Both the position numbers and the translations under genes were made by a program. Below, piece after piece: positions 1 to 60,460 of a stretch of DNA of 64,000 nt. Position 1 is the first letter of the stretch. Each line of letters opens with the position of its first letter. Location: NCBI GenBank assembly GCA_035547315.1, contig DASZVH010000004.1, positions 76,108 through 140,107 of the forward strand. Reading direction: 5' to 3'. The notes under the pieces are model-generated. The model had not been told where the DNA came from. It saw only the letters and a program-made list of their open reading frames with translations, and ran no database searches. The DNA comes from Minisyncoccota bacterium (GTDB lineage Bacteria; Patescibacteriota; Minisyncoccia; Phycocordibacterales; Phycocordibacteraceae).

Positions 1-1606
1 CGCGCAGCATCTTGGCCCCGATATCGGCGAAGCTGCCGCCGACCTTCTTGCCGGGGTTGAAGATGCCCCCCGGGTCGAATGTCTTCTTGGTCTCTTCAAA
101 GAGCCGCATCATCTCCGGGCCGAAGAGCATCGGGAGATAGGGGGTGCGGATGATGCCGTCGTTGTGCTCGCCGGTGGTGGTGCCGCCATACTTGATCACG
201 AGCGCGTAGACCTTGGGTGCGAGCTCGAGCACCACCTGCTTGGTCGCGGGGCTCGCGAGGTCCATGAGCGGGATGATATGGAAATTGCCGTTGCCGATAT
301 GCCCGGCGATCGTGTAGATCATCTTGCCTTCATACTGCGCGAGCAGGGCGTTAAGCTCGGGCAGGAACTGCGGGTACGAGGCCGGCGGCACGACGAAGTC
401 GTCGATGAAGGGCGCGGCGTAGAGGCCGTGCAGGTTCTTGCGCAGGAGCGAGAAGGACTCGCGCCGGACCACCCAATACTTCTCGCTCTCTTTCTCATTC
501 TTCTCTATCTTGAGGCGGATCGGCAGCCCCGCAAGCGCCTCCATTGCGCTTTGCGCCTTCTGGTCCGCCTCCGCGATCGTCTCCTCGGCGAACTCGGCCA
601 TGAGGATGAGCTTGGGGACGCCGCCCTCGGCGACCATGAGCGCCTCGGGGATAAAGTCGACCCCGAGGCGCGCCGCCTTCGCGAGGCCCATCTGCGCGAG
701 CATCTGGGGGAGGAACTTGATCGCGAGGGTGAAGGTCTTGTCGTCGTAGCTCTCGAAGGACTCGGGCGCGAAGGGCAGCACCTTGGCGACGATCTCGGGC
801 AGGGCCGAGAGGTCCTCGAGGAAGCCGACCAGCATCGCGCGGTGGGGCTTGGGGCGCACGAGGCCGAGTTTGGCCTTTGTCCAGAGCGCGAGCGTTCCTT
901 GCGAGCCGCAGATGAGCTTGGCGAGATTCATCCCGCCCTCGGGAGTGCGGATATCCCAGAGGTAGTAGCCGGCGGAGTTCTTGGAGACCTTGGGCTTGCG
1001 CGCCTCGATCAGCGCGGCATTCTCGGCAAGCAGCGCGTCCATCGCGCGATAAATCTGCCCCTCGAAATCGTTTTTGACCTTCTTCATCTGGAGTTCGGAG
1101 GGCGAGAGCGCCTTGAAGGCGGCGATGCTGCCGTCGGCGAGCACGCACTCGAGCTCTTCGACGTACCGCTCCGTCTTGCCGTATTCGAGCGTGCGCTCGC
1201 CGCCGGAGTTGTTGGCGACGATGCCGCCCATCGCGCAGAGCTCGCGGCTCGCCGGATACGAGGGCAGGATCAATCCTCGTGCGAGCGTCGCCTTCTCGAA
1301 GTCGCGGTAGTAGACGCCGGGTTCGGTAACGGCGTAGTCGGCACCGACTTCGAGCACGCGATTCATATATTTGGTGAACTCCACGATCGTGCCCGTGTTA
1401 AGCGGCCCGCCAGACATGTCGGTGCCGGCGGCGCGCGCGGTGATAGAAACTTTCGCACCTCGCTGTCGCTCGGCACCTACGGACTTAACGAGCTCTGCGA
1501 GCTCGTTAACGTCCTTGGGCCAGGCGACCTCGCTCGGCATCACCTCGAAGAGGGAGGTGTCGCGGCTCGCCTTGGCGAGCTCGGCCTTGTCCGTAGAGAT
1601 CTCCAT
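1..1606 (-). CDS. FAD-binding oxidoreductase (FAD-linked oxidase, GlcD / D-lactate dehydrogenase family); 3' end lies beyond the window
   Basis: Minus-strand reading frame from ATG (cat at 1604-1606) translating MEISTDKAELAKASRDTSLFEV... and continuing to window edge; contains ...AGHIGNGNFHIIP... motif typical of FAD-oxidase C-terminal domain; track ORF 164..1663 (+) is its antisense shadow. Confidence 0.75.
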   Translation of the reverse strand, partial: MEISTDKAELAKASRDTSLFEVMPSEVAWPKDVNELAELVKSVGAERQRGAKVSITARAAGTDMSGGPLNTGTIVEFTKYMNRVLEVGADYAVTEPGVYYRDFEKATLARGLILPSYPASRELCAMGGIVANNSGGERTLEYGKTERYVEELECVLADGSIAAFKALSPSELQMKKVKNDFEGQIYRAMDALLAENAALIEARKPKVSKNSAGYYLWDIRTPEGGMNLAKLICGSQGTLALWTKAKLGLVRPKPHRAMLVGFLEDLSALPEIVAKVLPFAPESFESYDDKTFTLAIKFLPQMLAQMGLAKAARLGVDFIPEALMVAEGGVPKLILMAEFAEETIAEADQKAQSAMEALAGLPIRLKIEKNEKESEKYWVVRRESFSLLRKNLHGLYAAPFIDDFVVPPASYPQFLPELNALLAQYEGKMIYTIAGHIGNGNFHIIPLMDLASPATKQVVLELAPKVYALVIKYGGTTTGEHNDGIIRTPYLPMLFGPEMMRLFEETKKTFDPGGIFNPGKKVGGSFADIGAKMLR

Positions 1607-1664
1607 GCCTCCAGTATACCGCCCGCTTTTTATGCACATGCAATTTTCATCGCCCAGCGGTAGT

Positions 1665-2366
1665 ATGAGGGGTATGAGAAGCGGCGCTTGGGCGGTCCTT
1701 ATCGTGCTTATCATCCTCGTGGCGCTGGTCGCCTGGTTCTTCTGGGGCCGCGGTGCAGCGGGCCCCACGGCCTCCTCGACGCCTCCGGCCGCGACCTCGA
1801 GCGAGCAGACCACCACAACCCCGCAGGGGCTCAGCTTCACCCTCCCGGCGGCCTTCGCGCTCGCGACGGGGCAGGAGCCCATCATGGTCCAGAGCTACAT
1901 CCCGCCCTGCGACCAGGGTTATGACTATTGCCTTTACAAGAACGACGACGAGTTCGCGGGCACCAACTTCGAGAGCGCGGGCGTAAGCATCACTGATCGC
2001 GGCGACCTTGGCACCGAGCGCCTCTGCCTCGACACGCCGCCCGCCGGCTACGCGAGCACGATTACCCCGGACAACACCGTCTCGGGCGACACCTACTCCG
2101 CGAGCGTCTTCGCCGGCCTCGGCAACGCCGCCGCCGGCCACAGCGCGGTAGACAGCTACTACCGCCTCTACGACCGCAGCAACAGCACCTGCACCGAGCT
2201 TGACGCGCGGGTCGCAGAGAGCGCCTACGGCAACTACCCGGCCGGCACGATCGAGGAGTTCACCGCCGCCGACCAGGCGCAGGTCGAGAGCGAGCTCCAG
2301 TCCATCCTCAACGGCATGACCCTCGCCCCTTCCGGCACCCACATCAACTGGCCCAGCACCTCTTAA
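1665..2366 (+). CDS. hypothetical membrane-anchored secreted protein (N-terminal TM helix, Thr/Ser-rich linker, Cys-containing domain)
   Basis: In-frame part of track ORF 1371..2366; plausible start at ATG 1665/1674 (MRGMRSGAWAVLIVLIILVALVAWFFW); upstream part of track ORF overlaps antisense of oxidoreductase. Confidence 0.5.
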   Translation: MRGMRSGAWAVLIVLIILVALVAWFFWGRGAAGPTASSTPPAATSSEQTTTTPQGLSFTLPAAFALATGQEPIMVQSYIPPCDQGYDYCLYKNDDEFAGTNFESAGVSITDRGDLGTERLCLDTPPAGYASTITPDNTVSGDTYSASVFAGLGNAAAGHSAVDSYYRLYDRSNSTCTELDARVAESAYGNYPAGTIEEFTAADQAQVESELQSILNGMTLAPSGTHINWPSTS

Positions 2367-2418
2367 ATCAAGGCTTCTCAGGAAAGAAAAAATTTCTCAA
2401 TACTTTTCGTTAGAACAT

Positions 2419-2874
2419 ATGCAGTATTGGTTGATGAAGAGTGAGCCGGGGGAGTTTTCGATAAACGATTTGGAGAAAATTGGGGAGGAACCGTGGTCGG
2501 GAGTGCGGAGCTACCAGGCGCGCAAATATATGAGGGAGGAGATGCAGATTGGCGATAGGGTGCTCTTCTACCACTCCTCCTGCGAAGTGCCGGGGGTCTA
2601 TGGGCTCGCGAGGGTGAGCCACCTGGCCGAGCCGGACCAGGCGCAGTTTGATACGAAGAGCAAATACTTTGAGCCGCGCGCGAAGCGCGCGGCGCCGATC
2701 TGGTATGGCGTGCGGGTGCGCTTTGTCAAAAAGCTCAAGCGGCCGGTGACGCTCGCGGCGATGCGGGCGGATACGCGGCTCAAGGGTTTATTCATCTTTA
2801 AGAACGGCCGCCTCTCGGTGGGGCCGGTGGGCGAGCGGGAGTATCGGCGCATCGTGAAGATGGCGGGGGAGTAA
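2419..2874 (+). CDS. EVE domain (PUA-like) protein
   Basis: MQYWLMKSEPGEFSINDL...WSGVRSYQARKYMREEM..GDRVLFYHS signature of EVE/thymocyte nuclear protein family. Confidence 0.85.
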   Translation: MQYWLMKSEPGEFSINDLEKIGEEPWSGVRSYQARKYMREEMQIGDRVLFYHSSCEVPGVYGLARVSHLAEPDQAQFDTKSKYFEPRAKRAAPIWYGVRVRFVKKLKRPVTLAAMRADTRLKGLFIFKNGRLSVGPVGEREYRRIVKMAGE

Positions 2875-2907
2875 CCAACCGCGGCCCCGGAGGGGCCGCG
2901 GTTGGTT
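2873..2907. terminator. perfect inverted repeat (16-bp arms, 3-nt loop) between convergent genes; putative bidirectional terminator
   Basis: aaccaaccgcggcccc-gga-ggggccgcggttggtt read directly; no strong U-tract. Confidence 0.45.
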
Positions 2908-2923
2908 TGCCTCCGCTCTAGGC

Positions 2924-3787
2924 TTATTGCACTACGACCGTCGTGGTCGCGAGCGGGAGGGTGGCGATGTCGCAGTGCGGATCGCTCCACATGCAGCCGA
3001 TGTAGCCCTCCACCTGCGCGGTGTAGGTGCCGGGGCTCTGGTAGGTGTGCGCGGTGGTAAAGGAGCAGTTGGGCGCAAGCGTGAGCGCGCTCCCGGCCGA
3101 GGCCGAGGAGGCGACCGGCGTCGCCTGGCTGCACGCGGCGCTCATGGAGCCGGAGTTGGCGCCGTCGCCGTAGTCTATGACGAAGGGCCCGCTGCTCGAG
3201 AGGGCGAAGGCGGAGAAGGAGACCGCGAGCGGCGCCGCGCCCGAGGCGGGCGCTGCCGAGAGGCTCGCCTGGCGCGGCGGGTTCGCGGGCGGGGGCGAGG
3301 AGACGCCGCAGCCGAGCTTGGCGCGGGTCATCGGGCCGAAGAAGCCGGTCGAGGGCAGGCCGTTGGCGGCCTGGAGATTTTTCACCGCGGCGGCGGTCAG
3401 GGGGCCGAAGTAGCCGGTCGCCCCGGCGGAGAAGCCGGTCGAGCTCGCAAGATACTGCTGGAGCGCGACGACATTGGCGCCCGTGGCGCCTTGCGAGAGG
3501 TTAAGCGCGACCGGGCAGAGGAAGCGGCCGGCGCCCGCGGCGACGGAACCCGAGAGGCTCCCGCCGCCGGCGGGCGGGCTCGCGATGGCGGTGCCGTTGA
3601 GGCTCGCCTCCACCTGCGCGATCGTGCTCGCGCCCACCCCGAAGGAGGAGATGAGCGAGACGACCGCGTTTACCTGAGCGCTCGAGAGGCTCGCGGCCTC
3701 GGCGGGGACGGCCGCGAAAGAGAGCGCGAAGAGGGCGAACGCGAACGGGGCGAGGAATTTGGCGAAGTATGCGGCGAGACGGTTCAT
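2924..3787 (-). CDS. secreted peptidoglycan-binding domain (PG_binding_1) protein with C-terminal PKD-like domain
   Basis: Signal peptide MNRLAAYFAKFLAPFAFALFALSFAAVPAEA (start cat 3785-3787); LSQGATGANVVALQQYLA...YFGPLTAAAVKNLQAANGL PG-binding repeat; C-terminal PLAVSFSA...VIDYGDG...AHTYQSPGTYTAQV PKD-like. Confidence 0.6.
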   Translation of the reverse strand: MNRLAAYFAKFLAPFAFALFALSFAAVPAEAASLSSAQVNAVVSLISSFGVGASTIAQVEASLNGTAIASPPAGGGSLSGSVAAGAGRFLCPVALNLSQGATGANVVALQQYLASSTGFSAGATGYFGPLTAAAVKNLQAANGLPSTGFFGPMTRAKLGCGVSSPPPANPPRQASLSAAPASGAAPLAVSFSAFALSSSGPFVIDYGDGANSGSMSAACSQATPVASSASAGSALTLAPNCSFTTAHTYQSPGTYTAQVEGYIGCMWSDPHCDIATLPLATTTVVVQ

Positions 3788-3885
3788 AGGGTGAGGTACG
3801 CTACAGGCGGATAAGGCTGCTCTCTTTAGAACGGCTCCCGGGCGGATTTCTTTCATCTGCCGATTCATCAACTCTTCACCCGGCT

Positions 3886-4521
3886 GTGAGGCATAGTAGA
3901 GCCATGCGCCGGCCGGCAGCGGCAGCGATCTTGCTCGGAGCGGCAGCCACCCTTGCCGCGGGGGCGGCGCATCTCTTCCTCTACGCGCCCGAGGCGGCGA
4001 TCGCGCCGCCCGCCGCGCTCGCGGAGGCGGCGGCGCGGGTGAGCACCAGCACGCTCCCGGCGCGTCTCGCGATCCCCGCGATCGGGGTGGACGCGCCGAT
4101 CGACCCGCTCGGCATCGTCGCCGGCGACCGCATGCAGGCGCCCGCCAATTTCACCGATGTGGGCTGGTATAAATACGGCGTCGTGCCCGGGAGCCCGGGC
4201 ATCGCCGTCCTCTACGCGCATCTCGACAACGGGCTCGGGCTCAGCGGCGTCTTCAAGGATCTCGACCGGCTCAAGGCGGGCGACGAGCTGACGCTCACCC
4301 GCAAGGACGGCGCGACGCTCCGCTTCAAGGTAAGCGATGTCGAGACGTACCCCTACGACGCCGTGCCGCCCGCGGCTATAGGCGAATCCTCGCCCGGGCC
4401 GGGGCCCGCAGACCCCGCGCGGGTCGTGCTCATAACCTGCGCGGGGGAGCCGACGCACGACCCCTCGATGGGCTTTACCTACGACCACCGGCTCCTCGTG
4501 ACCGCGACGCTCGAGCCGTAG
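3886..4521 (+). CDS. class F-like sortase (transpeptidase)
   Basis: N-terminal TM, LAIPAIGVDAPI..., His in VLYAHLD, catalytic VLITCAG (TLxTC-like) motif; alternative start ATG 3904. Confidence 0.6.
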   Translation: MRHSRAMRRPAAAAILLGAAATLAAGAAHLFLYAPEAAIAPPAALAEAAARVSTSTLPARLAIPAIGVDAPIDPLGIVAGDRMQAPANFTDVGWYKYGVVPGSPGIAVLYAHLDNGLGLSGVFKDLDRLKAGDELTLTRKDGATLRFKVSDVETYPYDAVPPAAIGESSPGPGPADPARVVLITCAGEPTHDPSMGFTYDHRLLVTATLEP

Positions 4522-4589
4522 TGCTTTACAAAACAAATGAGTAGTGTATTATAGAGCAAGTACGGCCTTTCAAGAGGGAGAGCAGAGTA

Positions 4590-5291
4590 ATGAGCAAACA
4601 TATTGTCGCGGCCGCGCTGGCCGCTCTGACGCTCGCCGGCTGCGCAAGCGCCGGGGGCCAGAACGACCCCTTCGAGGGGGTGAATCGAAAAGTGTTCGCC
4701 TTCAACGAACGCTTCGACGACCGCGTCGCCATCCCGGCGACGCACGCCTACCACAAGATCACGACGCCCGGCATCCGCGCGGCGCTGCACGATATCGTGC
4801 AGAACTTGCGCGAGCCGATCAACTTCTTCAATGACCTCGGCCAGGGGGACTTCTCCCAGGCGGGCGTCACGCTCGGCCGGATGGCGCTCAACAGCACCGC
4901 CGGACTCGGCGGCATCGGCGACCCGGCCGCCAAGGCGGGCCTGCCGTATCGCGAAGAGGACTTCGGCCAGACGCTCGCCGTCTGGGGCGCGCCGGAAGGG
5001 TCCTACCTGGTCCTGCCGCTCCTCGGGCCCTCGAGCCCGCGCGCGCTGGCGGGCAGAGCGGCGGACGCGGCGATGAACCCGTTCTCCTACGCGAGCTTCC
5101 CCGGCTCGCACGCCCTCCATTGGGTGCGCTACGGGGGCGGGACGCTCGATCAGGCGCAACGGCTCTCGGGCCTGCGCGGGATCGAGCGCGAATCGCTCGA
5201 CGCCTACGCGACCGAGCGCAGTCTCTATCGCCAGAATCTGGCGCACGAGATCGCGAACGGCCATGAGCAGCCTCCCGACATCCCGCAGTAG
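4590..5291 (+). CDS. mlaA: MlaA/VacJ family outer-membrane lipoprotein
   Basis: Lipobox LTLAGCAS; DPFEGVNRKVFAFNERFDDRVAIP...IVQNLREPINFFNDLGQGD...GGIGDPAAKAGLPYREEDFGQTLAVWG closely follows MlaA consensus. Confidence 0.8.
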   Translation: MSKHIVAAALAALTLAGCASAGGQNDPFEGVNRKVFAFNERFDDRVAIPATHAYHKITTPGIRAALHDIVQNLREPINFFNDLGQGDFSQAGVTLGRMALNSTAGLGGIGDPAAKAGLPYREEDFGQTLAVWGAPEGSYLVLPLLGPSSPRALAGRAADAAMNPFSYASFPGSHALHWVRYGGGTLDQAQRLSGLRGIERESLDAYATERSLYRQNLAHEIANGHEQPPDIPQ

Positions 5292-5347
5292 CGGGAGTAT
5301 GCGGGCCGGACCTTCGTGTCCGGCCCGCTTTTCTATATAATCGTAGG

Positions 5348-7081
5348 ATGACGCAGCGCGAGGCGCTCGAGATACTCAAGACGGGCGCGAACGTCTTCCT
5401 CACCGGCGAGCCGGGGAGCGGCAAGAGCTACGTGGTGGGGAGCTATGTCGAGTGGCTGCGCGCGCGCGGGCTCGAGCCGGCGGTCACCGCCGCGACCGGG
5501 ATCGCGGCCGCGCAGATCAGCGGGATGACGGTCCACTCTTGGAGCGGGATCGGCGTGCGCGAGCGGCTCTCGGCCGCCGAGGTCGACCAGATCGCAAGTA
5601 AGGAGCACGTCGCGCGCCGCGTGGCGCGCACCTCCACGCTCGTGGTCGACGAGGTCTCGATGCTTTCCGCCGCGCTCCTCGAGGCTCTCGACGCCGTCTG
5701 CAAGGAGATCCGTCGCTCGGAGCGGCCGTTCGGCGGTCTGCAGCTCGTGCTCGTGGGCGACTTCTTCCAGCTCCCGCCCGTGCTCCGCCGGAGCTCCGGC
5801 GGAGGCGAGCGGCAATCGCTCTTCTGCTACGACTCCGCCGCCTGGCGCGAGCTCAACCCGCTGATCTGCTATCTCGGCGAGCAGCACCGCCAGGAGGACA
5901 GGGAGTATCTCGAGGTCTTGAGCGCGATACGCCGCGGCGAGGTCGAGGAGCTGCACTACGAGCGGATCAACGCGCGCCGGATCGAGCCCGGGCAGGCACC
6001 GCGCCTGGGCGAGGCGCCGCGCCTCTACTCGCACAACGCGGACGTCGACCGGGAGAACGCCGCCGAGCTCGCCAAGCTCCCGGGGGCGCCGCGCGCCTTC
6101 CTCATGAGCGCGCGCGGCGCCCCCGCGCTCGTCGAGGGGTTGAAGCGCGGCTGTCTCTCGCCCGAGCGGCTCGAGCTCAAAGAGGGCGCGGCGGTCATGT
6201 TCACCAAGAACTCGCCGACCGGCCGCTACGTCAACGGCACGCTCGGCCGCGTGATCGGGTTTGACGCCGCCGGATTGCCGATAGTCGAGATGCGCAGCCC
6301 CTCGCCGGGCTCGGTGCGGCCGGCTCCGTATATCGCGGAGCCGGTCGAGTGGCAGGTGGAGGAGAACGGCAACGTGCGCGCCGCGATCAGTCAGCTGCCG
6401 CTGCGGCTCGCCTACGCGATGACGGTGCACAAGAGCCAGGGGCAGTCCCTGGACGCCGCGCTCGTCGACCTCTCGCGCGCCTTCGAATACGGCCAGGGCT
6501 ATGTCGCGCTCTCGCGCGTGCGCACACTCGCGGGGCTCCACCTCGCGGGCATCAACGAGCGCGCGCTCCTGGTCCACCCGGAGGTGCTCGAGCGCGACCG
6601 CGATTTCCGCGCGGCCTCAAGCGCCGCGGCCGAGACCTTCGAGGCGATGGGCGCGCCGGAGCGCGAGACGCTGCAAAAGAACTTCGTCAAAGCCTCGGGA
6701 GGCGAGTGGAACGCGCGCGCCGCGCCCGCGCCCGCGCGGCGCGGCGGCGCGGCGGCGCGGCGGCAGGCGATGGAGGCCAAGCTCGCGCAGACGCTCGAGC
6801 GCGTGCGTGCGGCGCCCTCGCTCGCGGAGGCCGCGCGCACGCGCGGGCTCGCCGAGAGCACTATCCTGACGCATCTGGAAAAGCTCGCCGCCGCCGGCGC
6901 GCTCTCGCGGGAGGATTTCTCCCATCTCCTGCCCGCCGCGGGCGACCTCGCCAAGATCAGGCTCGCGCTCAAGGCCAAAGGCGGCGAGAAGCTCGCGCCC
7001 GCCTTCTACGCGCTCAAGGGCCGCTACCCCTACGAGGTTATCCGTCTGGCTCGCTTGGGGTATGATGGGGCGGATGCCTAA
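5348..7081 (+). CDS. PIF1/RecD-like ATP-dependent DNA helicase (P-loop GEPGSGKS, DEVSM box) with C-terminal extension
   Basis: FLTGEPGSGKSYV...LVVDEVSMLS...LVLVGDFFQLPPV...MTVHKSQGQSLD...YVALSRVR motifs. Confidence 0.7.
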   Translation: MTQREALEILKTGANVFLTGEPGSGKSYVVGSYVEWLRARGLEPAVTAATGIAAAQISGMTVHSWSGIGVRERLSAAEVDQIASKEHVARRVARTSTLVVDEVSMLSAALLEALDAVCKEIRRSERPFGGLQLVLVGDFFQLPPVLRRSSGGGERQSLFCYDSAAWRELNPLICYLGEQHRQEDREYLEVLSAIRRGEVEELHYERINARRIEPGQAPRLGEAPRLYSHNADVDRENAAELAKLPGAPRAFLMSARGAPALVEGLKRGCLSPERLELKEGAAVMFTKNSPTGRYVNGTLGRVIGFDAAGLPIVEMRSPSPGSVRPAPYIAEPVEWQVEENGNVRAAISQLPLRLAYAMTVHKSQGQSLDAALVDLSRAFEYGQGYVALSRVRTLAGLHLAGINERALLVHPEVLERDRDFRAASSAAAETFEAMGAPERETLQKNFVKASGGEWNARAAPAPARRGGAAARRQAMEAKLAQTLERVRAAPSLAEAARTRGLAESTILTHLEKLAAAGALSREDFSHLLPAAGDLAKIRLALKAKGGEKLAPAFYALKGRYPYEVIRLARLGYDGADA

Positions 7082-8228
7082 GGAGCGCAGGGAGGAGGGA
7101 AAGCCGCGCGCGGCCGCCGCGCGCGGCGCGCATATCTCGCTCGGCCTCGGCGGGCTCGTCCTGATCGGCGCGGGCGCTTACCTCGCGCTCTGGAGCAACC
7201 TCTTTTCGATCGAGTACACGCGCGCGGACGGCGCGAGCTCGACCCCGCGCTACAAGGCGATCGACCCGGCGCTCTACAACCTCGAGGAGCTCGCGCTCGC
7301 GCACATCGACCCCTCCTTGACCACCCTGCTCCAGCCGCAGAACGCCTCCTCGACCTTGCTGGCCGCGACCACCACCGCCTCGAGCTCGGTGGCGATAGCG
7401 GGGAAGGCCTGGCCCGCGCCCTCGCCCTACCCGGCGCCCGGCGCGCTCCTCCCCGCGCATCGCATCGTGGCCTACTACGGCAACTTCTATTCCACCGCGA
7501 TGGGCGTGCTCGGCGAGTACCCCGCGGACCAGGTGCTCGCGATGCTCGCCTCCACGAGCGCCGAGTGGGAGGCGGCGGATCCGGCCACGCCGGTCATCCC
7601 GGCGATCGACTACATCGCGGTGACCGCGCAGGCCGCCGCCGGCGCCGACGGCAAGTACCGCGCGCGCATGCCGGCGAGCCAGATCGAGCAGGCGATCGCG
7701 ATGGCCAGCCAGCTCCACGGCATCGTGATTCTCGACGTGCAGGTCGGGCTCTCCGACCTGCCGACCGAACTCCCGCTCTTGGCGCCCTATCTCTCGCTCC
7801 CCAACGTCAATCTCGCGATCGATCCCGAGTTCTCGATGCAGACCAGCGGAGCCCGGCCGGGAACCGTCATCGGCACGTATAGCGCCAAGGATATCGACTA
7901 CGCGATCGACTACCTCGACTCCCTGGTGAAGCAAAACGATCTGCCGCCCAAGATCCTGGTGGTGCACCGCTTTACCGAGGACATGGTGACCAATTACCAA
8001 AACATCACGCCGCTCCCGGACGTGCAGGTGGTGATGGACATGGACGGCTGGGGCGACCAAGCCAAGAAGATCAACACCTACGAGCGCGTGATCGCGAGCG
8101 AGCCCGTTGAGTTCACCGGCTTCAAGCTTTTCTACAAGGCGGACTTGAAGCCGCCCTCGACCGGGCTTCTCGCGCCCGCGCAGGTATTGGCGCTCACGCC
8201 CGCGCCGATTTTCATCCAGTATCAATAA
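7062..8228 (+). CDS. hypothetical membrane-anchored protein, possibly TIM-barrel glycoside-hydrolase-like extracytoplasmic domain
   Basis: ORF overlapping helicase stop by 20 nt; TM segment LGGLVLIGAGAYLALW; motifs IVILDVQVG, ILVVHRFTEDMV, VVMDMDGWGD suggestive only. Confidence 0.45.
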   Translation: MMGRMPKERREEGKPRAAAARGAHISLGLGGLVLIGAGAYLALWSNLFSIEYTRADGASSTPRYKAIDPALYNLEELALAHIDPSLTTLLQPQNASSTLLAATTTASSSVAIAGKAWPAPSPYPAPGALLPAHRIVAYYGNFYSTAMGVLGEYPADQVLAMLASTSAEWEAADPATPVIPAIDYIAVTAQAAAGADGKYRARMPASQIEQAIAMASQLHGIVILDVQVGLSDLPTELPLLAPYLSLPNVNLAIDPEFSMQTSGARPGTVIGTYSAKDIDYAIDYLDSLVKQNDLPPKILVVHRFTEDMVTNYQNITPLPDVQVVMDMDGWGDQAKKINTYERVIASEPVEFTGFKLFYKADLKPPSTGLLAPAQVLALTPAPIFIQYQ

Positions 8229-18062: not shown

Positions 18063-18071
18063 GTCATTTTG

Positions 18072-18486
18072 TGGAGGCGGGGGGAATTGAACCCCCGTCC
18101 GAATCCGGATTTGAGAGCGCTTCTACGACGCGTAGCTAGAGTTAGGCGCTAGGGCAGGATGCGAGGAACTCCAGCGAAACCATTCCTGCTTGATCCCTTT
18201 GTTTAATCCCGAGCCAGGGAATGGCGAAGGACGAGCCTATAGAAGATTCCGCCCCTCGCCGCGCTATAGGCGCCGGTGAGCGAGGGACGTCGCGCTAAGC
18301 GAAGGGAGCGAAACGCTCGACCTTACGCGTACGCGAACGCGAAGTTGCCCATACCGAAGTACGGAGACTTCACGCTTGCAAGAGTGTTCTTGGCAAGTTT
18401 GGCGCTCGAGAGGATTAGAGTGTCAGTCGAGCATGCACTGCGTCGCACGATTCTCAAAGAACGGACCGTCTAAGCCGGTCACCCCC
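18072..18486 (-). ncRNA. ssrA: tmRNA (transfer-messenger RNA)
   Basis: Minus strand starts GGGGGUGACCGGCUUAGACGG and ends ...GGACGGGGGUUCAAUUCCCCCCGCCUCCA (T-arm + acceptor with G3:U70 pair); directly downstream of smpB; internal short ORF ending UAA consistent with tag reading frame. Confidence 0.8.
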
Positions 18487-29208: not shown

Positions 29209-31386
29209 TCACTCGAGGTGGATAGTCGCGGCGGCGCCCCGCGCGAGACGCGCGAGGAGCGGGTAGCTGGCAAGCTCCGGATCCTTGGCAAGGAGGCGCT
29301 TGGCCTCGCTCCGGGCCGCCTCGACGAGGCGTAAATTACCCAATGATTCCATAGCGATGTCGGATACTCCCCACTGATTTCCGCCCATGAGCTCGCCCGC
29401 TCCCCGCAGCGCCAGATCCCGCTTGGCGAGCTCAAAGCCGTTCTTGGCCGTGATGAGCGCGGTGAGGCGGGCCCGCACGCTCGCGGCCTTCGATTCGGCG
29501 AGGAGGAAACAGTACGCTTGGCGGTCGGAGCGGATCACGCGGCCGCGCAGCTGGTGCAGCTGCGCGAGGCCGAAGCGTTCGGCACCCTCAATCAGAATCA
29601 CGGTCGCGTTCGGCACGTTGACGCCCACTTCGACGACCGAGGTCGCGACCAGGATCTGCACCTCGCCCGCCGCGAACATGCGCATGGACTCCTCTTTCTC
29701 GGCTGGCGTCATCTTGGAGTGGAGGATACCGATGTCGAACTCGGGGAAGACCTCCTGGGCGAGCCGCGCGGCCTCCGCTTTTACCGAACGCATCTCACGC
29801 TTCTGGGGCTCGCCCGCGCCGCCGGCTTCTGCCGGGTCGATGCGCGGGCAGATAACGTATGCCTGGCGGCCCGCGGCGAGCTCCGCGCGCATGCGCTCGT
29901 ATGCGGCCGCGCGCGCCGCGGGCGCGACGACCTCGGTGATCACCGGCCGCCGGCCTGCCGGCAGCTCGTCGAGCACGGAGAGATCCAGATCGCCGTAGAG
30001 CGTGAGCGCGAGCGTGCGCGGGATCGGCGTCGCCGTCATCGAAAGCAGATGCGGCGTCAACAAGGTTCGTCCTTGTTTCAAGGTCGAACCTTGTTTGGTG
30101 ACGAGCTTCTGCCGGTGCGCGGTGCCGAAGCGATGCTGCTCTTCGATCACGGCGAGCGCGAGCCGCTTGAAAGAGAGCGTCTCCTGGATGAGCGCGTGCG
30201 TGCCGATGACGATCGGGATGAGGCCGTCGGCCACCCGCTTGCGGAAGGTCGCGCGCGAGAGCGCGGCGGACTCTTCGTAGGAGACGCGCGAGGGGAACAC
30301 GCGCGTCTCGCTGCCCGTGATGAGGCCGATCGGGATCGGGTGCGCGCGGAAATAGGAGACGAAGGTGGAGAAGTGCTGCTTGGCGAGCACCTCGGTCGGG
30401 CACAGGTAGGCGACCTGCGCGCCCGCCGCCGCGGCCAGATACGCCGCCGCCGCCGCGACCGCCGTCTTGCCGCTCCCGACGTCGCCCTCCAGGAGGCGCA
30501 GCATCGGCACGGGGCGCGCGAGGTCGCGCGCGATCGCCGCGATAGCGCGCCGCTGCGCGCGCGTCGGCGGGAAGGGAAAACTCGCGACGAACGCTTCGAG
30601 GAGGCCGGCGCCAGGCGCGAGCTCGAGCGCGCGCGTCGCGCGCACGGTGCGGCGGCGCTCCTCGAGCGCGAGCGTGAGCGCGAGGATCTGCTCGAAGGCG
30701 AAGCGCTTGCGGGCCGCGGCGGCATCTCCGGCCCGCCGGGGCCGATGTATATATATGAGCGCGTTCTCGAACGCCGGGAGCCGGTAGCGGCGCAGGAGCT
30801 CGGGGGGCAGCGGGTCGGCGAGCGCGCCGGCGAGCGCCTTGAGCGTTTTCCCGATCGCGTGGAAGAACCAGAGCGAGCTGATGCCCTCGCTTTCGGGGTA
30901 GACGGGGAAGACGGCGGGAGCGGGCGCCGGGCCGGGAGCCGGAGAGAAGAGCGAGGCATGCGCCTCCTCGGGGTCGATCGGCGCGCGATCCACCTCGGGG
31001 TTCGCGAGATAGGCGCCGCTCCCGGATCCCGCCACCCTCCCGCTCACCTTAACCGCCATGCCTTCGCGCAGCGATTTGGCGATATACGGCTGGGAGAACC
31101 ACATGAGCTTGATGCGTCCGCTCGCGTCCTCGAGCCAGGCCTCGGCCAGCGGGCGGCGGCTCTTCCAGCTCTTGCGTGCCTCGGGCTTGCGGATGACGCC
31201 GTAGAGCGTCGCGCTCGCGCCCGGCGCGACGCCCGCGATCGTCGCCGAGGGGCCGGCGGCCTCGTAGCGGGAGGGGAAGTGGTAGAGCAGGTCGTGCAGG
31301 GTCGCGATCTTGAGGCGCTTCAACGCGCGCCGCTGCTCCGGCTTGAGCTTGGGGAAGAGCTTCTCGAGCGGGTCGGCGGGAGCCAC
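29209..31386 (-). CDS. recG: ATP-dependent DNA helicase RecG
   Basis: Helicase motifs GDVGSGKT, DEQHRFG, LLSMTATPIPRTLALT, ...VEVGVNVPNATVILIEGAERFGLAQLHQLRGRV; start probably GTG/TTG near 31386-31392 (no ATG); upstream part of track ORF is Arg-rich non-coding extension. Confidence 0.85.
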   Translation of the reverse strand: MAPADPLEKLFPKLKPEQRRALKRLKIATLHDLLYHFPSRYEAAGPSATIAGVAPGASATLYGVIRKPEARKSWKSRRPLAEAWLEDASGRIKLMWFSQPYIAKSLREGMAVKVSGRVAGSGSGAYLANPEVDRAPIDPEEAHASLFSPAPGPAPAPAVFPVYPESEGISSLWFFHAIGKTLKALAGALADPLPPELLRRYRLPAFENALIYIHRPRRAGDAAAARKRFAFEQILALTLALEERRRTVRATRALELAPGAGLLEAFVASFPFPPTRAQRRAIAAIARDLARPVPMLRLLEGDVGSGKTAVAAAAAYLAAAAGAQVAYLCPTEVLAKQHFSTFVSYFRAHPIPIGLITGSETRVFPSRVSYEESAALSRATFRKRVADGLIPIVIGTHALIQETLSFKRLALAVIEEQHRFGTAHRQKLVTKQGSTLKQGRTLLTPHLLSMTATPIPRTLALTLYGDLDLSVLDELPAGRRPVITEVVAPAARAAAYERMRAELAAGRQAYVICPRIDPAEAGGAGEPQKREMRSVKAEAARLAQEVFPEFDIGILHSKMTPAEKEESMRMFAAGEVQILVATSVVEVGVNVPNATVILIEGAERFGLAQLHQLRGRVIRSDRQAYCFLLAESKAASVRARLTALITAKNGFELAKRDLALRGAGELMGGNQWGVSDIAMESLGNLRLVEAARSEAKRLLAKDPELASYPLLARLARGAAATIHLE
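30059..30096. repeat. tandem palindromic units CAAGGTTCGTCCTTG-ttt-CAAGGTCGAACCTTG inside recG coding sequence (in-frame)
   Basis: Read directly; related to element in lepA. Confidence 0.55.
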
Positions 31387-39712: not shown

Positions 39713-39718
39713 TTTTTT
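39681..39718 (+). terminator. rho-independent terminator overlapping DUF192 stop codon
   Basis: aaacgccgcctc-tcatc-gaggcggcgttt hairpin followed by gattttttgg. Confidence 0.5.
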
Positions 39719-39720
39719 GG

Positions 39721-40080
39721 GGACCCGGCCGATAAGCCGAATTCTGTCTTGCTTCGCCGTAGCCCGGCGAGGCGAGGCGATCATTTATCTGTCTCGATTG
39801 TCGCCAACCGGATCAAGCGGCACCCCCGCCGCACCTCGCAGGTGGGCGGGTACGGCCTTGCACGCGGGTAAGGATTTAGCCGTTTCATCCCGTACCTTGC
39901 GGTACGGCTCGCCCCTCGGGATTACCCTCGGGGCGCTTGCACGCTTTCGCCGCAAGCGTCTCTGTTCGCACCTCGCGCCTCGCGGCGTGCGGGGATTACC
40001 CGCTACCTTGCTGCTCCCGAGGGAGCGCGTGTTCGGACTTTCCTCCCCGCCGAAAGCGGAGCGATCGCCTGGCCGGGTCC
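39721..40080 (-). ncRNA. rnpB: RNase P RNA (bacterial type A-like)
   Basis: Minus strand: P1 GGACCCGGCC...GGCCGGGUCC closing helix; P4 strands GGGAGGAAAGUCCGAACAC and ACAGAAUUCGGCUUAUCGG present at expected 5'/3' positions; about 360 nt; track ORFs here are Arg-rich non-coding. Confidence 0.75.
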
Positions 40081-44258: not shown

Positions 44259-46082
44259 GTGGAGATACGCAACTTCTCGATCATCGCGCACATTGACCAC
44301 GGGAAGAGCACCCTGGCTGATCGCCTGCTCGAGAAGACGGGCACTATCCCCGAGCGCAAGATGCGCGCGCAGGTCTTGGACAAGATGGACCTCGAGCGCG
44401 AGCGCGGGATCACGATCAAGATGCAGCCGGTGCGGATGACCTATCGCGCGGCGGACGGTCGCGACTATATTTTGAATTTGATCGATACGCCCGGGCATAT
44501 CGACTTCTCCTATGAGGTCTCGCGGGCGCTTAAGGCGGTCGAGGGCGTCGTCTTGCTTGTGGACTCTACCCAGGGAGTCCAGGCGCAAACGTTGACCACC
44601 CTCGCCGCGGCCAAGGAGGCCGGCTGCGCTATCATCCCGGTGGTCTCCAAGATAGATTCTCCCTACGCGCGCGTGCCGGAGGTCAAAGCGGAGCTCGCGC
44701 GCCTGCTCGAGGTCCGGGAGGGGAGTGTGCTCGCGGTCTCGGGGAAGACGGGCGCCGGCGTAGAGCAATTGCTGCAGGCAATTGTGGAAAGAGTGCCCGC
44801 GCCGACAAGGTCGAACCTCGTAAATCCCGAAGGTTCGACCTTGTCGGGCGAAGCGCGCGGGCTCATCTTCGACTTCTCCTATTCCACGCACCGCGGCATC
44901 GCCGTCTATCTGCGCGTCTTCGACGGCTCGATCAAGGCGGGCGACAAATTGTCCTTCCGCGCGGCAGGCCGTGATTTTACGGCCCTCGAGGTCGGCGTCT
45001 TCACCCCCGAGGAGGCGCCCACCGCCGCGCTTGGCGCGGGAGAGATCGGCTACGTGGTCACCGGCATCAAGGAGCCGGGCGTGGTTGCGGTCGGCGACAC
45101 CGTCGGCGCCACCAAGGGTGCTCTGCCGGCCCTGGCGGGTTTTGAACGGCCGCGTCCGGTGGTCTGGGCCTCCGTCTATCCGGAAAGCCAAGACGATCTG
45201 CCACTTCTTCGCCAGGCGCTTGAGCGCCTGCGGCTCTCCGACTCCTCGCTCTCCTTTGAGGAGGAATCATCCGGGGTGCTCGGGCGAGGCTTCCGCTGCG
45301 GGTTCTTGGGGCTCCTCCATTTGGAGATCATCACGGAGCGCCTGCGGCGCGAGTTCAGCCTCACCTTGGTGGTCACGATCCCGACGATCTCCTATGTGGT
45401 CACCACGGAGAACGGCAAAACAGAGACTTACTACACGCCGGCCAAGTTCCCCGAGTTCGGCGAGATCAAAGAGATCCGCGAGCCTTGGGCAAACGCGATT
45501 ATCATCACGCCCCCAGAGTCCCTCTCCGGCATCATGCAGCTCCTCTACGAGCATGAGGCGGAAGTTAAAAACACCGAGACCTTCCCTGACGGCAGGATCG
45601 AGCTTGCTGCGGAGCTGCCCTTGCGGGAGCTTATGCGCGGATTCTTCGATGCACTCAAGAATGTCTCCTCGGGCTACGCGAGCCTCTCCTATGAGCTCCT
45701 GCCAGAGCGGCCGGCCGACGTGGTGCGTCTCGATATCTTGGTCGCGGAGGAGCCGGTGCCCGCCTTCGCGCGGATCGTCGCGCGGCGGCGCGTACAAGAG
45801 GAGGCGGAGAAGATGGTCGAGCGCCTCCATGCCATACTCCCCAAGCAGCTCTTTGTCACCAAGATCCAGGCGCGCGCCTTGGGGCGGATCATCTCCTCGC
45901 GCTCCTTATCCGCGATGCGCAAGGATGTCACGGGTTACCTCTACGGCGGCGACGTCTCCCGCAAGCAAAAACTCCTGCAAAAGCAGAAGCGGGGCAAGAA
46001 GAAGCTCCTCGCGCACGGCACCGGCCGGGTGACCATCCCCGAGGACGTCTTTATGAAGATGGTGCAGGAAAGCGACCGCTAA
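44259..46082 (+). CDS. lepA: elongation factor 4 (LepA)
   Basis: GTG start; IRNFSIIAHIDHGKSTLADRLL, DTPGHIDF, SKID G-motifs; C-terminal LepA-specific region ...LLQKQKRGKKK. Confidence 0.9.
   Translation: MEIRNFSIIAHIDHGKSTLADRLLEKTGTIPERKMRAQVLDKMDLERERGITIKMQPVRMTYRAADGRDYILNLIDTPGHIDFSYEVSRALKAVEGVVLLVDSTQGVQAQTLTTLAAAKEAGCAIIPVVSKIDSPYARVPEVKAELARLLEVREGSVLAVSGKTGAGVEQLLQAIVERVPAPTRSNLVNPEGSTLSGEARGLIFDFSYSTHRGIAVYLRVFDGSIKAGDKLSFRAAGRDFTALEVGVFTPEEAPTAALGAGEIGYVVTGIKEPGVVAVGDTVGATKGALPALAGFERPRPVVWASVYPESQDDLPLLRQALERLRLSDSSLSFEEESSGVLGRGFRCGFLGLLHLEIITERLRREFSLTLVVTIPTISYVVTTENGKTETYYTPAKFPEFGEIKEIREPWANAIIITPPESLSGIMQLLYEHEAEVKNTETFPDGRIELAAELPLRELMRGFFDALKNVSSGYASLSYELLPERPADVVRLDILVAEEPVPAFARIVARRRVQEEAEKMVERLHAILPKQLFVTKIQARALGRIISSRSLSAMRKDVTGYLYGGDVSRKQKLLQKQKRGKKKLLAHGTGRVTIPEDVFMKMVQESDR
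44804..44845. repeat. 42-nt palindromic element (15-bp perfect arms GACAAGGTCGAACCT / AGGTTCGACCTTGTC, 12-nt spacer) in-frame within lepA
   Basis: Read directly; encodes TRSNLVNPEGSTLS inserted between ...RVPAP and GEARGLIFD... Confidence 0.6.
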
Positions 46083-59230: not shown

Positions 59231-60460
59231 TTAGGCGAGCGAGAGGGCGCCGGAGGCGGAGAGGGTGGCGGGGTCGGCGAAGTCGGAGCGGAGCGCGCGG
59301 AAGTAGCCCGCGAGCGCGATCATGAGCGCGTTGTCGGTGGTGAGGTCCGCGGAGGGGATGCGCAGGTCTACACCCGGAAATTCTTTAGCGATGTTTTCTT
59401 TAAAAACGCGGCGGATGTGAGTGTTGGCCGAGACGCCGCCGCCGATCACCACGGTCTTCGCGCCGGTCTCCTTGAGCGCTCGCGCGGTCTTCGCCCAGAG
59501 CACCTCGCTTACCGCCTCCTCGAAGGCGAGCGCGATACGCTTTTTGTCTTCATCGTTGATGCCGTCCTGCTTCTTCAAGAGATAGAGCACCGCCGTCTTG
59601 AGTCCGGCGAAGGAGAAGTCGCAGGTGGCGTCATGGAGCATCGGGCGGGGGAGCGCGAGGCCTTTTATGAAATCGTCCGGCTCATTGCGCGCCGCCTCCG
59701 CGAGTTTTGATATCTGCGGGCCGCCCGGGTAGAGGAGGCCGAGCATGCGCGCGACCTTGTCGAAGGCCTCGCCGACCGCGTCGTCGCGCGTCTGGCCGAT
59801 CAATTCGTACTCTAACCACTCGCGCATAAGCACGAGCTCGGTGTGTCCACCCGAGATAAGGAGCGCGAGGATAGGCACCTCGACGCCTTTGATCTCAAGC
59901 GTCTCTCCGCTCTTCTGCGCCAGGCCCGCGAGCACATGCCCCTCCATATGATTAACGGCGACTATCGGCAGCCCCCACGCCGCTGCGAGTGCCTTGGCGA
60001 AGTTGATGCCCACCCAGAGCGCGGGCTCGAGCCCGGGGCCCGCGGTGACCGCGATCGCGTCGAGCGCGGGCCGCTCGCACTCCTTCAAAAATTCGAGCAA
60101 ATTCTCCGCGAGCGCGCCCTCGCGCGCGAGCAGATCGGCGAGCGAGGCGCGCAGCGCCTCGTCGAGCTCCTGCTCGCTTTCATGCAAAAGCTCCGCCTCC
60201 TCGAGCGCGGCCTCAAGCAGGGGGACAAGATTCTTGGCGTGCTCGCGCTTGGCGAGCGCGGGGAAGACGCCGCCATATTCCGCGTGCTTCTCCACCTGCG
60301 AAAGCAGGGCGTTGCCGAGAATCTTGAAACTCGCGGAAGAGGGAGCTTCTCTTCGGGTTGAGAGTCCAGCAAAACCCTTCGAGAAGCTCCCTCCTCCGCT
60401 CGCCTCCACGACCGCTACCGCGGTCTCGTCGCAACTGGTCTCGATAGCCAGGATTTTCAT
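59231..60460 (-). CDS. tsaD: tRNA N6-adenosine threonylcarbamoyltransferase TsaD (with about 70-aa insertion)
   Basis: MKILAIETSCDETAVAVV, ...ALLISGGHTELV..., GVEVPILAL; start cat 60458-60460; track ORF extension to 60772 is antisense of orn. Confidence 0.85.
   Translation of the reverse strand: MKILAIETSCDETAVAVVEASGGGSFSKGFAGLSTRREAPSSASFKILGNALLSQVEKHAEYGGVFPALAKREHAKNLVPLLEAALEEAELLHESEQELDEALRASLADLLAREGALAENLLEFLKECERPALDAIAVTAGPGLEPALWVGINFAKALAAAWGLPIVAVNHMEGHVLAGLAQKSGETLEIKGVEVPILALLISGGHTELVLMREWLEYELIGQTRDDAVGEAFDKVARMLGLLYPGGPQISKLAEAARNEPDDFIKGLALPRPMLHDATCDFSFAGLKTAVLYLLKKQDGINDEDKKRIALAFEEAVSEVLWAKTARALKETGAKTVVIGGGVSANTHIRRVFKENIAKEFPGVDLRIPSADLTTDNALMIALAGYFRALRSDFADPATLSASGALSLA

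Follow-up and report, generated by a model that had tools for sequence, protein, structure and literature searches.

A REPIN-like palindromic element inside recG of a Patescibacteria genome and its probable kinship with RAYT-associated repeats

The window considered here is the whole stretch of 64,000 nucleotides analysed from a Minisyncoccota bacterium of the Patescibacteria (contig DASZVH010000004.1), and all coordinates refer to it. Within its recG gene, positions 30059-30095 form a 37-base palindrome, AACAAGGTTCGTCCTTG-ttt-CAAGGTCGAACCTTGTT. This palindrome is probably a copy of a hairpin element, short and non-autonomous, of the repetitive extragenic palindromic (REP) type, or of the type known as REP doublets forming hairpins (REPINs), and belongs to a coding-tolerant family spread across the Patescibacteria, also called the Candidate Phyla Radiation (CPR). 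The cognate enzyme is most likely a Y1 (HUH) single-strand DNA transposase resembling the REP-associated tyrosine transposases (RAYTs). In the proposed mechanism, this RAYT-like enzyme would mobilise inverted doublets through single-stranded DNA, and one doublet would have entered the part of recG that codes for a surface loop, after helicase motif II and before motif III. It would have been retained there because all six of its frames are free of stop codons and its net change is a multiple of three, with nine additional residues tolerated in a disordered loop, and the encoded peptide would be a by-product rather than a selected feature.

The palindromic doublet in recG

The doublet (30059-30095, assigned to neither strand) consists of two 15-mer units, both given here on the plus strand, that are separated by the spacer ttt at 30076-78. 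Unit 1, CAAGGTTCGTCCTTG (30061-30075), has a single mismatch to the family 15-mer in reverse complement, and unit 2, CAAGGTCGAACCTTG (30079-30093), is the exact family 15-mer that is found across Patescibacteria. Flanking AA/TT bases extend the units to 17-nt arms with a single T/T mismatch. The sequence matches exactly that quoted in an earlier note on this DNA, which had described two tandem units, each forming its own hairpin. The units are instead inverted, unit 1 being the reverse complement of unit 2 apart from one mismatch, and folding of both single-stranded DNA (-16.2/-17.4 kcal/mol, z -5.7/-6.9) and RNA (-24.5 kcal/mol) favours one long hairpin over two small ones, at this site as well as at a second site in lepA. 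The same note had taken unit 2 to be identical to an arm of the lepA element; the two elements share 13-14 nt of identity (AAGGTTCGACCTT), which falls short of the whole 15-mer, and its placing of both sites in one palindromic family is borne out. With up to two mismatches, the family 15-mer has four matches in the window, where 0.07 would be expected, and none of 100 shuffled sequences contained as many, which excludes chance. Two of these matches are the recG units and the other two are the lepA units. The units thus occur outside recG in the same genome, as the note's reading required, and they also recur in many other CPR genomes.

Two further identities were considered for the palindrome. 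A relic of a tRNA T-arm was suggested by the T-loop-like GGTTCGA and was rejected, as the sole T-arm-like near match (18312) lies in the tmRNA and is unrelated. Searches of Rfam at gathering thresholds returned no RNA family at either the recG or the lepA site.

The host gene occupies 29209-31386 on the minus strand, begins with GTG and encodes 725 residues, the same as protein P0001 except for the start codon; P0001 is annotated as RecG in a metagenome-assembled genome (MAG) of Candidatus Paceibacterota. Read on the minus strand, the doublet gives K-QGSTL-K-QGRTL-L, and its 33-nt core (QGSTLKQGRTL) is in frame, as had been proposed. The insert comprises RecG residues 432-444 and follows helicase motif II (EEQHRFG). 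The neighbouring motif SMTATPIPRT is one that we take to be motif III in the usual numbering of superfamily 2 and RecG helicases, rather than the motif IV named earlier. Among 119 RecG orthologues with recognisable motifs, the distance from EQHRFG to (S/T)ATPIPR is 26 residues in 111, compared with 35 in the window protein, which reads ...KLVTK[QGSTLKQGRTLLT]PHLLSMTATPIPRT where the orthologues read ...KLVTK[Dxxx]PHLLS... The expected insertion in a short RecG linker is thus real, with neither the length nor the residues shared by the orthologues, and the predicted gain of about 11 residues comes to about nine net. At the DNA level, AAA[CAA GGT TCG ACC TTG AAA CAA GGA CGA ACC TTG TTG ACG]CCG in the window stands against AAG[GGA ATC GAG GCG]CCG in P0004, so that 39 nt occupy the place of 12 and the net gain is 27 nt (9 aa).

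The insert is compositionally foreign to its surroundings. Its 33-nt core has a GC content of 16/33 (48%) and is rich in AAA, CAA, GGT and TTG codons, compared with 71% GC for the gene. The structures of RecG from Escherichia coli (9wm0) and Thermotoga maritima (1gm5) are gapped at the insert loop. In an AlphaFold2 model of the window protein (mean predicted local distance difference test score, pLDDT, 74.5), residues 430-442 form a coil with pLDDT <50 between the helix at 421-430 and the motif III strand at 446-451. The insert is therefore predicted to be disordered, and RecG presumably remains functional.

Other RecG proteins carry different inserts in this loop. In P0016 (locus L204, 10001-12193) it contains a perfect 36-nt palindrome of unrelated sequence, with the halves AGTGCTACTGGTATGATAT and ATCATACCAGTAGCACT, which encodes SATGMIYHTSST; the GMIYHT peptide of this insert type is common to P0047 and P0039, and an insert reading GMIHIPNRECV is found in the linker of the LepA protein P0157. 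These inserts may represent a second family of palindromic elements. The closest RecG relatives of the window protein, P0002 and P0003 (L121, L122), have six extra residues there, and the DNA for them is a partial palindrome rich in GC, GCCGGCGGC ACC CTG CCTGCCGGC. This insert was considered as a decayed copy of the window element, but its sequence is different, and it may be either such a copy or another element. In P0060 (L205, 10001-12280), the loop holds a non-palindromic insert of 57 nt, QEYFHFSKPEYRQEKLVAP, with a 7-nt direct repeat, GCACCAC, at its flanks, and this looks like a duplication-type insertion. The RecG loop is a repeated target, for which a simple insertion model does not account.

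The lepA copy and its recurrence

The second copy lies in lepA (EF4), a plus-strand gene at 44259-46082 whose 607-residue product is identical to P0121. The element spans 44802-44847, again assigned to neither strand, and reads CCGACAAGGTCGAACCT-cgtaaatcccga-AGGTTCGACCTTGTCGG, with 17-nt arms that are 100% complementary and a spacer of 12 nt. Unit 1, CAAGGTCGAACCTCG (44806-44820, plus strand), and unit 2, CAAGGTCGAACCTTC (44829-44843, minus strand), each differ from the family 15-mer by one mismatch. The predicted hairpin is more stable than that of recG, at -25 kcal/mol for DNA (z about -8) and -39.4 kcal/mol for RNA. The element encodes TRSNLVNPEGSTLS in frame, within the linker that joins the G domain to domain II. 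The closest LepA relative, P0122 (85% identity), lacks the element and has PRASESAS at this point, with 21 nt in place of 45, and the EF4 of Thermus thermophilus is nine residues shorter at the site. More generally, the units are absent from the closest-relative loci of both recG and lepA (L121-123, L206), in keeping with a recent arrival.

The same linker has acquired the element elsewhere. Twelve of 120 LepA orthologues bear the element or half of it, in the same linker and in the same frame (RSNL...GSTL), among them P0133, P0137, P0139, P0156, P0161, P0170, P0177, P0205, P0218, P0228 and P0234. The nearest neighbours of nearly every one of these proteins, at 87-95% identity, lack it. On a neighbour-joining tree whose root lacks the element, parsimony requires at least ten changes, and the linker may thus be a hotspot of insertion or a specific target.

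Distribution across Patescibacteria and tolerance of coding DNA

The wider family was defined by scanning for the exact 15-mer on both strands of 596 Gb, with one genome per species, which gave at least 120 loci (L001-L120). Among these matches listed, 60 have record titles that name Patescibacteria lineages (Saccharibacteria, Kaiser-, Adler-, Lloyd-, Doudna-, Woese-, Taylor-, Vogel-, Nomura- and Yanofskybacteria, and Paceibacterota) and 13 are titled as unclassified 'bacterium' MAGs. The remaining singletons, in large genomes, fit chance, given an estimate of ~1,100 chance matches for a 15-mer in 596 Gb. In the listed loci there are 46 inverted doublets (up to two mismatches), and every one comes from a MAG that is labelled as CPR or as an unclassified 'bacterium'. 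The units occur in both arrangements (30 and 16), with spacers of 2-20 nt, and changes in one arm are mirrored in its partner, as in CGAGG...CCTCG (L065), GTGGAAC/GTTCCAC (L084) and TCCGA/TCGGA (L039). The family unit can be written as ACAAGGTTCGACCTTGT, 15-17 nt in length, and the doublet as two inverted copies a few bases apart. Ten doublets are found in six sampled loci (~46 kb) of the Lloydbacteria genome MHLS01. For the window genome, the 64 kb hold two copies, and a further 7.6 kb to the left hold none.

The placement of doublets is almost indifferent to coding, since 29 of the 46 (63%) lie in long open reading frames (ORFs), compared with 70% of random segments from the same loci; in both cases, a position well inside an open frame of at least 200 codons was counted as genic. 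About a third of the doublets are intergenic. Among the host genes are those for three LeuRS (two with the doublet at the same site), IleRS, DnaG, UvrA, SecA, FtsK and an HhH-GPD glycosylase. All six frames of the 15-mer unit are open, giving QGRTL, KVEP, RSNL, QGSTL, KVRP and RFDL, and at least five of these readings (QGSTL, QGRTL, RSNL, RFDL and KVEP) occur in host proteins. The use of several frames argues against selection for one peptide.

Two sets of copies deserve separate mention. In two CPR genomes (L004, 1617-1657, and L052, 1853-1893), the doublet occupies one and the same position in LeuRS, where the editing domain begins (IRFDLSQGSQGRTL and LRFDLKPDSQGRTL, respectively). In L018, an identical doublet is present in each of two paralogous Saccharibacteria genes (4645-4678 and 7321-7354), either right at the N-terminus or within the 5' leader, and it immediately precedes a stretch of hydrophobic residues resembling a signal peptide.

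Association with RAYT-like Y1 transposases

The link to a transposase comes from other genomes of the family. In L007, an ORF of 206 codons (985-1602) has doublets on both sides, and its product matches the Pfam family Y1_Tnp with an E-value of 2e-10 (41 bits against a cut-off of 23). Homologues in L002, L003 and L054 have the family 15-mer within ~40 nt on their flanks, and those in L055 and L093 are flanked by the variant palindromes CAAGGTTCCGAACCTTG and CCAAGGCAAGGCCTTGG. The six Y1 proteins are 206-227 aa long, with an invariant HUH motif (PNHFH) and an invariant tyrosine motif (YIHxNP). The only NCBIfam match is REP_Tyr_transpos (NF047646), with no IS200 TnpA model at E<=0.001, and a profile of the six proteins matches only E. 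coli TnpA-REP (4er8) in the PDB.

A metagenome scan extended this set to at least 592 Y1 relatives, and the flanks were checked in the best 80 loci. Within 150 nt of the gene, hairpins of the form AAGG-N5-CCTT are found upstream in 33 of these loci and downstream in 31, and 24 loci have them on both sides, compared with an estimated chance of ~0.02 per flank. Copies that belong to one locus have identical hairpin loops, and the loop differs between loci; L148, for example, has three copies of GCAAGGTCCAACCTTGC, and L200 has three of AAAAGGTTAAACCTTTT. Across 40 hairpins, all four stem pairs outside the search pattern covary, with 46 double-change cells compared with 16+/-3 after shuffling (none of 500 shuffles as high), and the signal collapses in slid controls. 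Such covariation marks a hairpin and a transposase as a cognate pair, as in REP-RAYT systems (PMC3116915, PMC3337134, PMC3479197). The Y1 transposase would mobilise the doublets through single-stranded DNA, and the window genome presumably has, or once had, a RAYT-like transposase.

The RAYT-like genes often hold an in-frame internal copy of their own flanking hairpin (L002 at ~1124, L003 at ~4254, L054 at ~989, and also L055 and L093), and such a copy is present in 19 of the 80 loci among L124-L203. The encoded peptides (such as KLQGSTLEE, KLQGRTLEE, KLTRSNLVS and IQGKALD) usually lie about 20 residues before the HUH motif. The internal hairpin could serve in autoregulation or could simply be another insertion. 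The locus L054 (CAZDQA010000072.1) is a 3.9-kb contig labelled 'uncultured Pseudomonadales', with a CPR-type RAYT gene and three copies of the 15-mer, and it is probably mis-binned.

The closest competing reading, though an unlikely one, is that the Y1 gene with its flanking hairpins is an active insertion sequence (IS) of the IS200/IS605 type, of which the doublets are transposase-less derivatives resembling miniature inverted-repeat or palindrome-associated transposable elements (MITEs, PATEs), as opposed to a domesticated REPIN-RAYT pairing. The chemistry would be the same, and the classification and evolutionary dynamics would differ. The family resembles these elements in its Y1 HUH transposase, in having sub-terminal hairpins on both sides, in the match between end hairpins and short elements, and presumably in single-strand DNA chemistry without classical target duplications. 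At L002, L054, L148, L149, L158 and L200, single units in the same orientation flank the gene, much as hairpins mark the left and right ends of IS200/IS605 elements. Moreover, the occurrence of the exact 15-mer in distant classes (Saccharibacteria, Paceibacteria, Doudnabacteria, Woesebacteria) fits horizontal spread better than the strictly vertical inheritance of RAYTs. Nevertheless, the CPR protein is closer to RAYT than to IS200 TnpA, as shown by its sole NCBIfam and PDB matches, and it is longer than IS200 TnpA, which is about 130-150 aa in length. The doublet architecture is likewise REPIN-like, and at L007, L124, L137 and L156 inverted doublets stand on the flanks of the gene, like those beside RAYT genes.

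Complementarity of the flanking DNA

Palindromy extends beyond the element into the host sequence. Comparison of L208 (8530-8580) with L209 shows it running past the 15-mers into the flanking codons of the host. In the LepA pair P0177 and P0186 (95% protein identity), of which one gene is filled and the other empty, the palindrome reaches 5 nt into the proline codons of the host (GCCGC...GCGGC), and the right-hand partner of this extension is new DNA. At least 3 nt of extra flank complementarity are found in 43% of 49 doublets (from L001-L120, L208 and the window), compared with 4% in a control with mismatched flanks. The extra outer arms are specific to each copy and differ between copies within one genome. 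This complementarity suggests either that the target flank is copied in inverted form at insertion, or that insertion takes place into the loops of pre-existing hairpins.

Relation to known elements

The recG and lepA elements are of a known kind, that of the REP/REPIN-RAYT elements, and of in-frame palindromic elements as in Rickettsia. As in the REP and REPIN systems of Pseudomonas and E. coli (PMC3116915, PMC3337134, PMC3479197), short hairpin units form inverted doublets that fold as one long hairpin. The two window copies have the REPIN layout, with 17-nt arms around a spacer of 3 nt in recG and 12 nt in lepA, and in each the minimum-energy fold is a single hairpin. Units also flank a Y1 HUH gene, the nearest solved relative of its product is TnpA-REP (4er8), and the hairpin co-varies with the gene. 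This flanking by the family 15-mer is found at the level of the family (L002, L003, L007 and L054), with no RAYT-like gene found in the window.

Several observations weigh against assigning the recG palindrome to a REP/REPIN-type family with a RAYT-like enzyme. REPs are extragenic by definition, whereas the CPR elements are not: most of the doublets lie in long ORFs, including those of essential genes, and both window copies are in conserved genes. The hairpin of REPs has a conserved GTAG or CGTC tetranucleotide at its 5' foot (PMC3733652), whereas the CPR hairpins have feet of A/C-AAGG, with no conserved GTAG or CGTC head in the listed flanks. The score of the Y1 protein against REP_Tyr_transpos is 52.4 bits, below the equivalog cut-off of 80, which also sets it apart from RAYTs. 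The covariation amounts to palindromy, and fits a single-strand hairpin or a duplex site bound by a dimer equally well. Neither the complementarity with host codons nor the recurrent occurrence at the same site and frame of LepA is expected of simple cut-and-paste of a fixed element. In the window genome, tblastn found no RAYT-like gene in the 64-kb window, nor was one found in a leftward extension of 7.6 kb (Logan contig), and with only two copies seen, activity there is at most putative. A contig from the sequencing run SRR12170514 matches window positions 1-5529 at 100% identity. The recG allele of the window is itself known from a single assembly (one member, one contig). Beyond these points, the CPR family differs from REP-RAYT systems in its AT-rich stem (AAGG/CCTT), which contrasts with a GC-rich one, in the sharing of one 15-mer by distant classes of a phylum, and in the frequent in-frame hairpin copy within the RAYT-like gene.

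The Rickettsia palindromic elements (RPEs), which Ogata and colleagues reportedly described in 2000, are said to be palindromic repeats inserted in frame in conserved housekeeping genes. RPEs are about 100-150 bp in length and are restricted to Rickettsia, and we know of no transposase associated with them. The CPR elements resemble them as in-frame palindromic repeats in conserved ORFs of small-genome bacteria, which add a surface peptide to a protein that presumably keeps its function. They differ from RPEs in their size (37-46 bp in the window and 32-50 bp for doublets overall), in their Patescibacteria hosts and in their association with a Y1 gene, the distinction being one of size rather than of sequence comparison.

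In the searchable literature, no prior description was found of the combination of a CPR host, coding-tolerant units open in six frames, a stem shared across the phylum and an internal copy in the transposase gene. Queries with the 15-mer sequence, with REPIN or RAYT and CPR names, and with RPE and CPR names returned nothing relevant, many subscription papers being outside the coverage. A survey of HUH enzymes makes no mention of CPR or of intragenic REPs (PMC6006769).

Selection by the host as an alternative

It is quite improbable that the 15-mer is a DNA signal selected by the host, such as a competence uptake sequence or a site for a host protein, which accumulates wherever it is tolerated, including coding loops. 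DNA uptake sequences of Neisseria and uptake signal sequences of Haemophilus are likewise short conserved motifs that are tolerated in coding regions, often as inverted pairs, and they lie near-randomly relative to genes. The CPR motif, stop-free in all frames, is also near-random relative to genes, and its exact 15-mer is conserved over distant CPR lineages. Natural competence is known in Saccharibacteria, but the study concerned reports no uptake sequence (PMC10633639), and no uptake specificity is known for CPR. An uptake signal would also not have a hairpin loop that varies between genomes and co-varies with the adjacent Y1 gene. In addition, the units are mostly inverted doublets with variable spacers, and their density is low, with only two copies per 64 kb in the window.

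The inserted peptide or the mRNA hairpin could itself be selected, as a regulatory loop of RecG and LepA or as an element of translational pausing or stability, with the DNA palindrome being secondary. The mRNA hairpins of recG and lepA are indeed very stable (z -6 to -9), and the 12 LepA orthologues carry the element in one frame. This reading is hardly probable, as at least five of the six unit frames are used in unrelated proteins, on which ground the idea of a functional peptide was rejected; about a third of the copies are intergenic, the closest relatives lack the element, and disorder is predicted for the insert. That the palindrome is a chance one or an artefact of assembly can be dismissed even though the recG allele comes from a single assembly and chimeric reads can yield palindromes, given that the shuffles rule out chance, the element lies mid-contig and in frame with a second copy in lepA, and it recurs in dozens of independent assemblies from different studies.

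Implications for Patescibacteria genomes

Beyond the window, it is fairly plausible, as a more tentative proposal than that made for recG, that Patescibacteria carry an undescribed, phylum-wide system resembling REPIN/RAYT. Units open in six frames would colonise essential genes about as readily as intergenic DNA and would repeatedly hit the same surface loops, as suggested by the LepA linker, with its ten or more inferred gains or losses, and by a RecG loop in which three different palindromic inserts occur. Together with the in-frame hairpin copy within the transposase genes, such a system would be a continuing source of variation in protein loops among bacteria with the smallest genomes, and insertion may copy the target flank in inverted form.

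REPs and REPINs are the textbook extragenic repeats, a view that would have to change if a related family resides in essential genes, and does so in genomes that are the most gene-dense and reduced known. CPR biology would gain its first well-defined endogenous mobile-element system, one that can be tested directly in the few cultivable Saccharibacteria. The element would also explain odd insertions of low GC content and rare codons in CPR housekeeping proteins, which are relevant to annotation, phylogenomic alignments and structure prediction, and it offers natural filled/empty markers for strain tracking. Finally, the internal hairpin and the flank complementarity hint at unexplored mechanisms of regulation and insertion in Y1 transposases.

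Other features of the window

The window contains three other strong inverted repeats, possibly terminators, whose sequences are not related to that of the element. They lie at 2873-2907 (perfect 16-nt arms, AACCAACCGCGGCCCC and GGGGCCGCGGTTGGTT), at 6081-6125 (perfect 16-nt arms of G and C only) and at 60333-60399 (27-nt arms, 85% complementarity). Searches with Rfam identify a tmRNA (18069-18486) and the RNase P RNA (39717-40080), both on the minus strand, and six tRNA genes. The GC content of the window ranges from 52 to 71%, with a low-GC patch (52%) at 36-38 kb.

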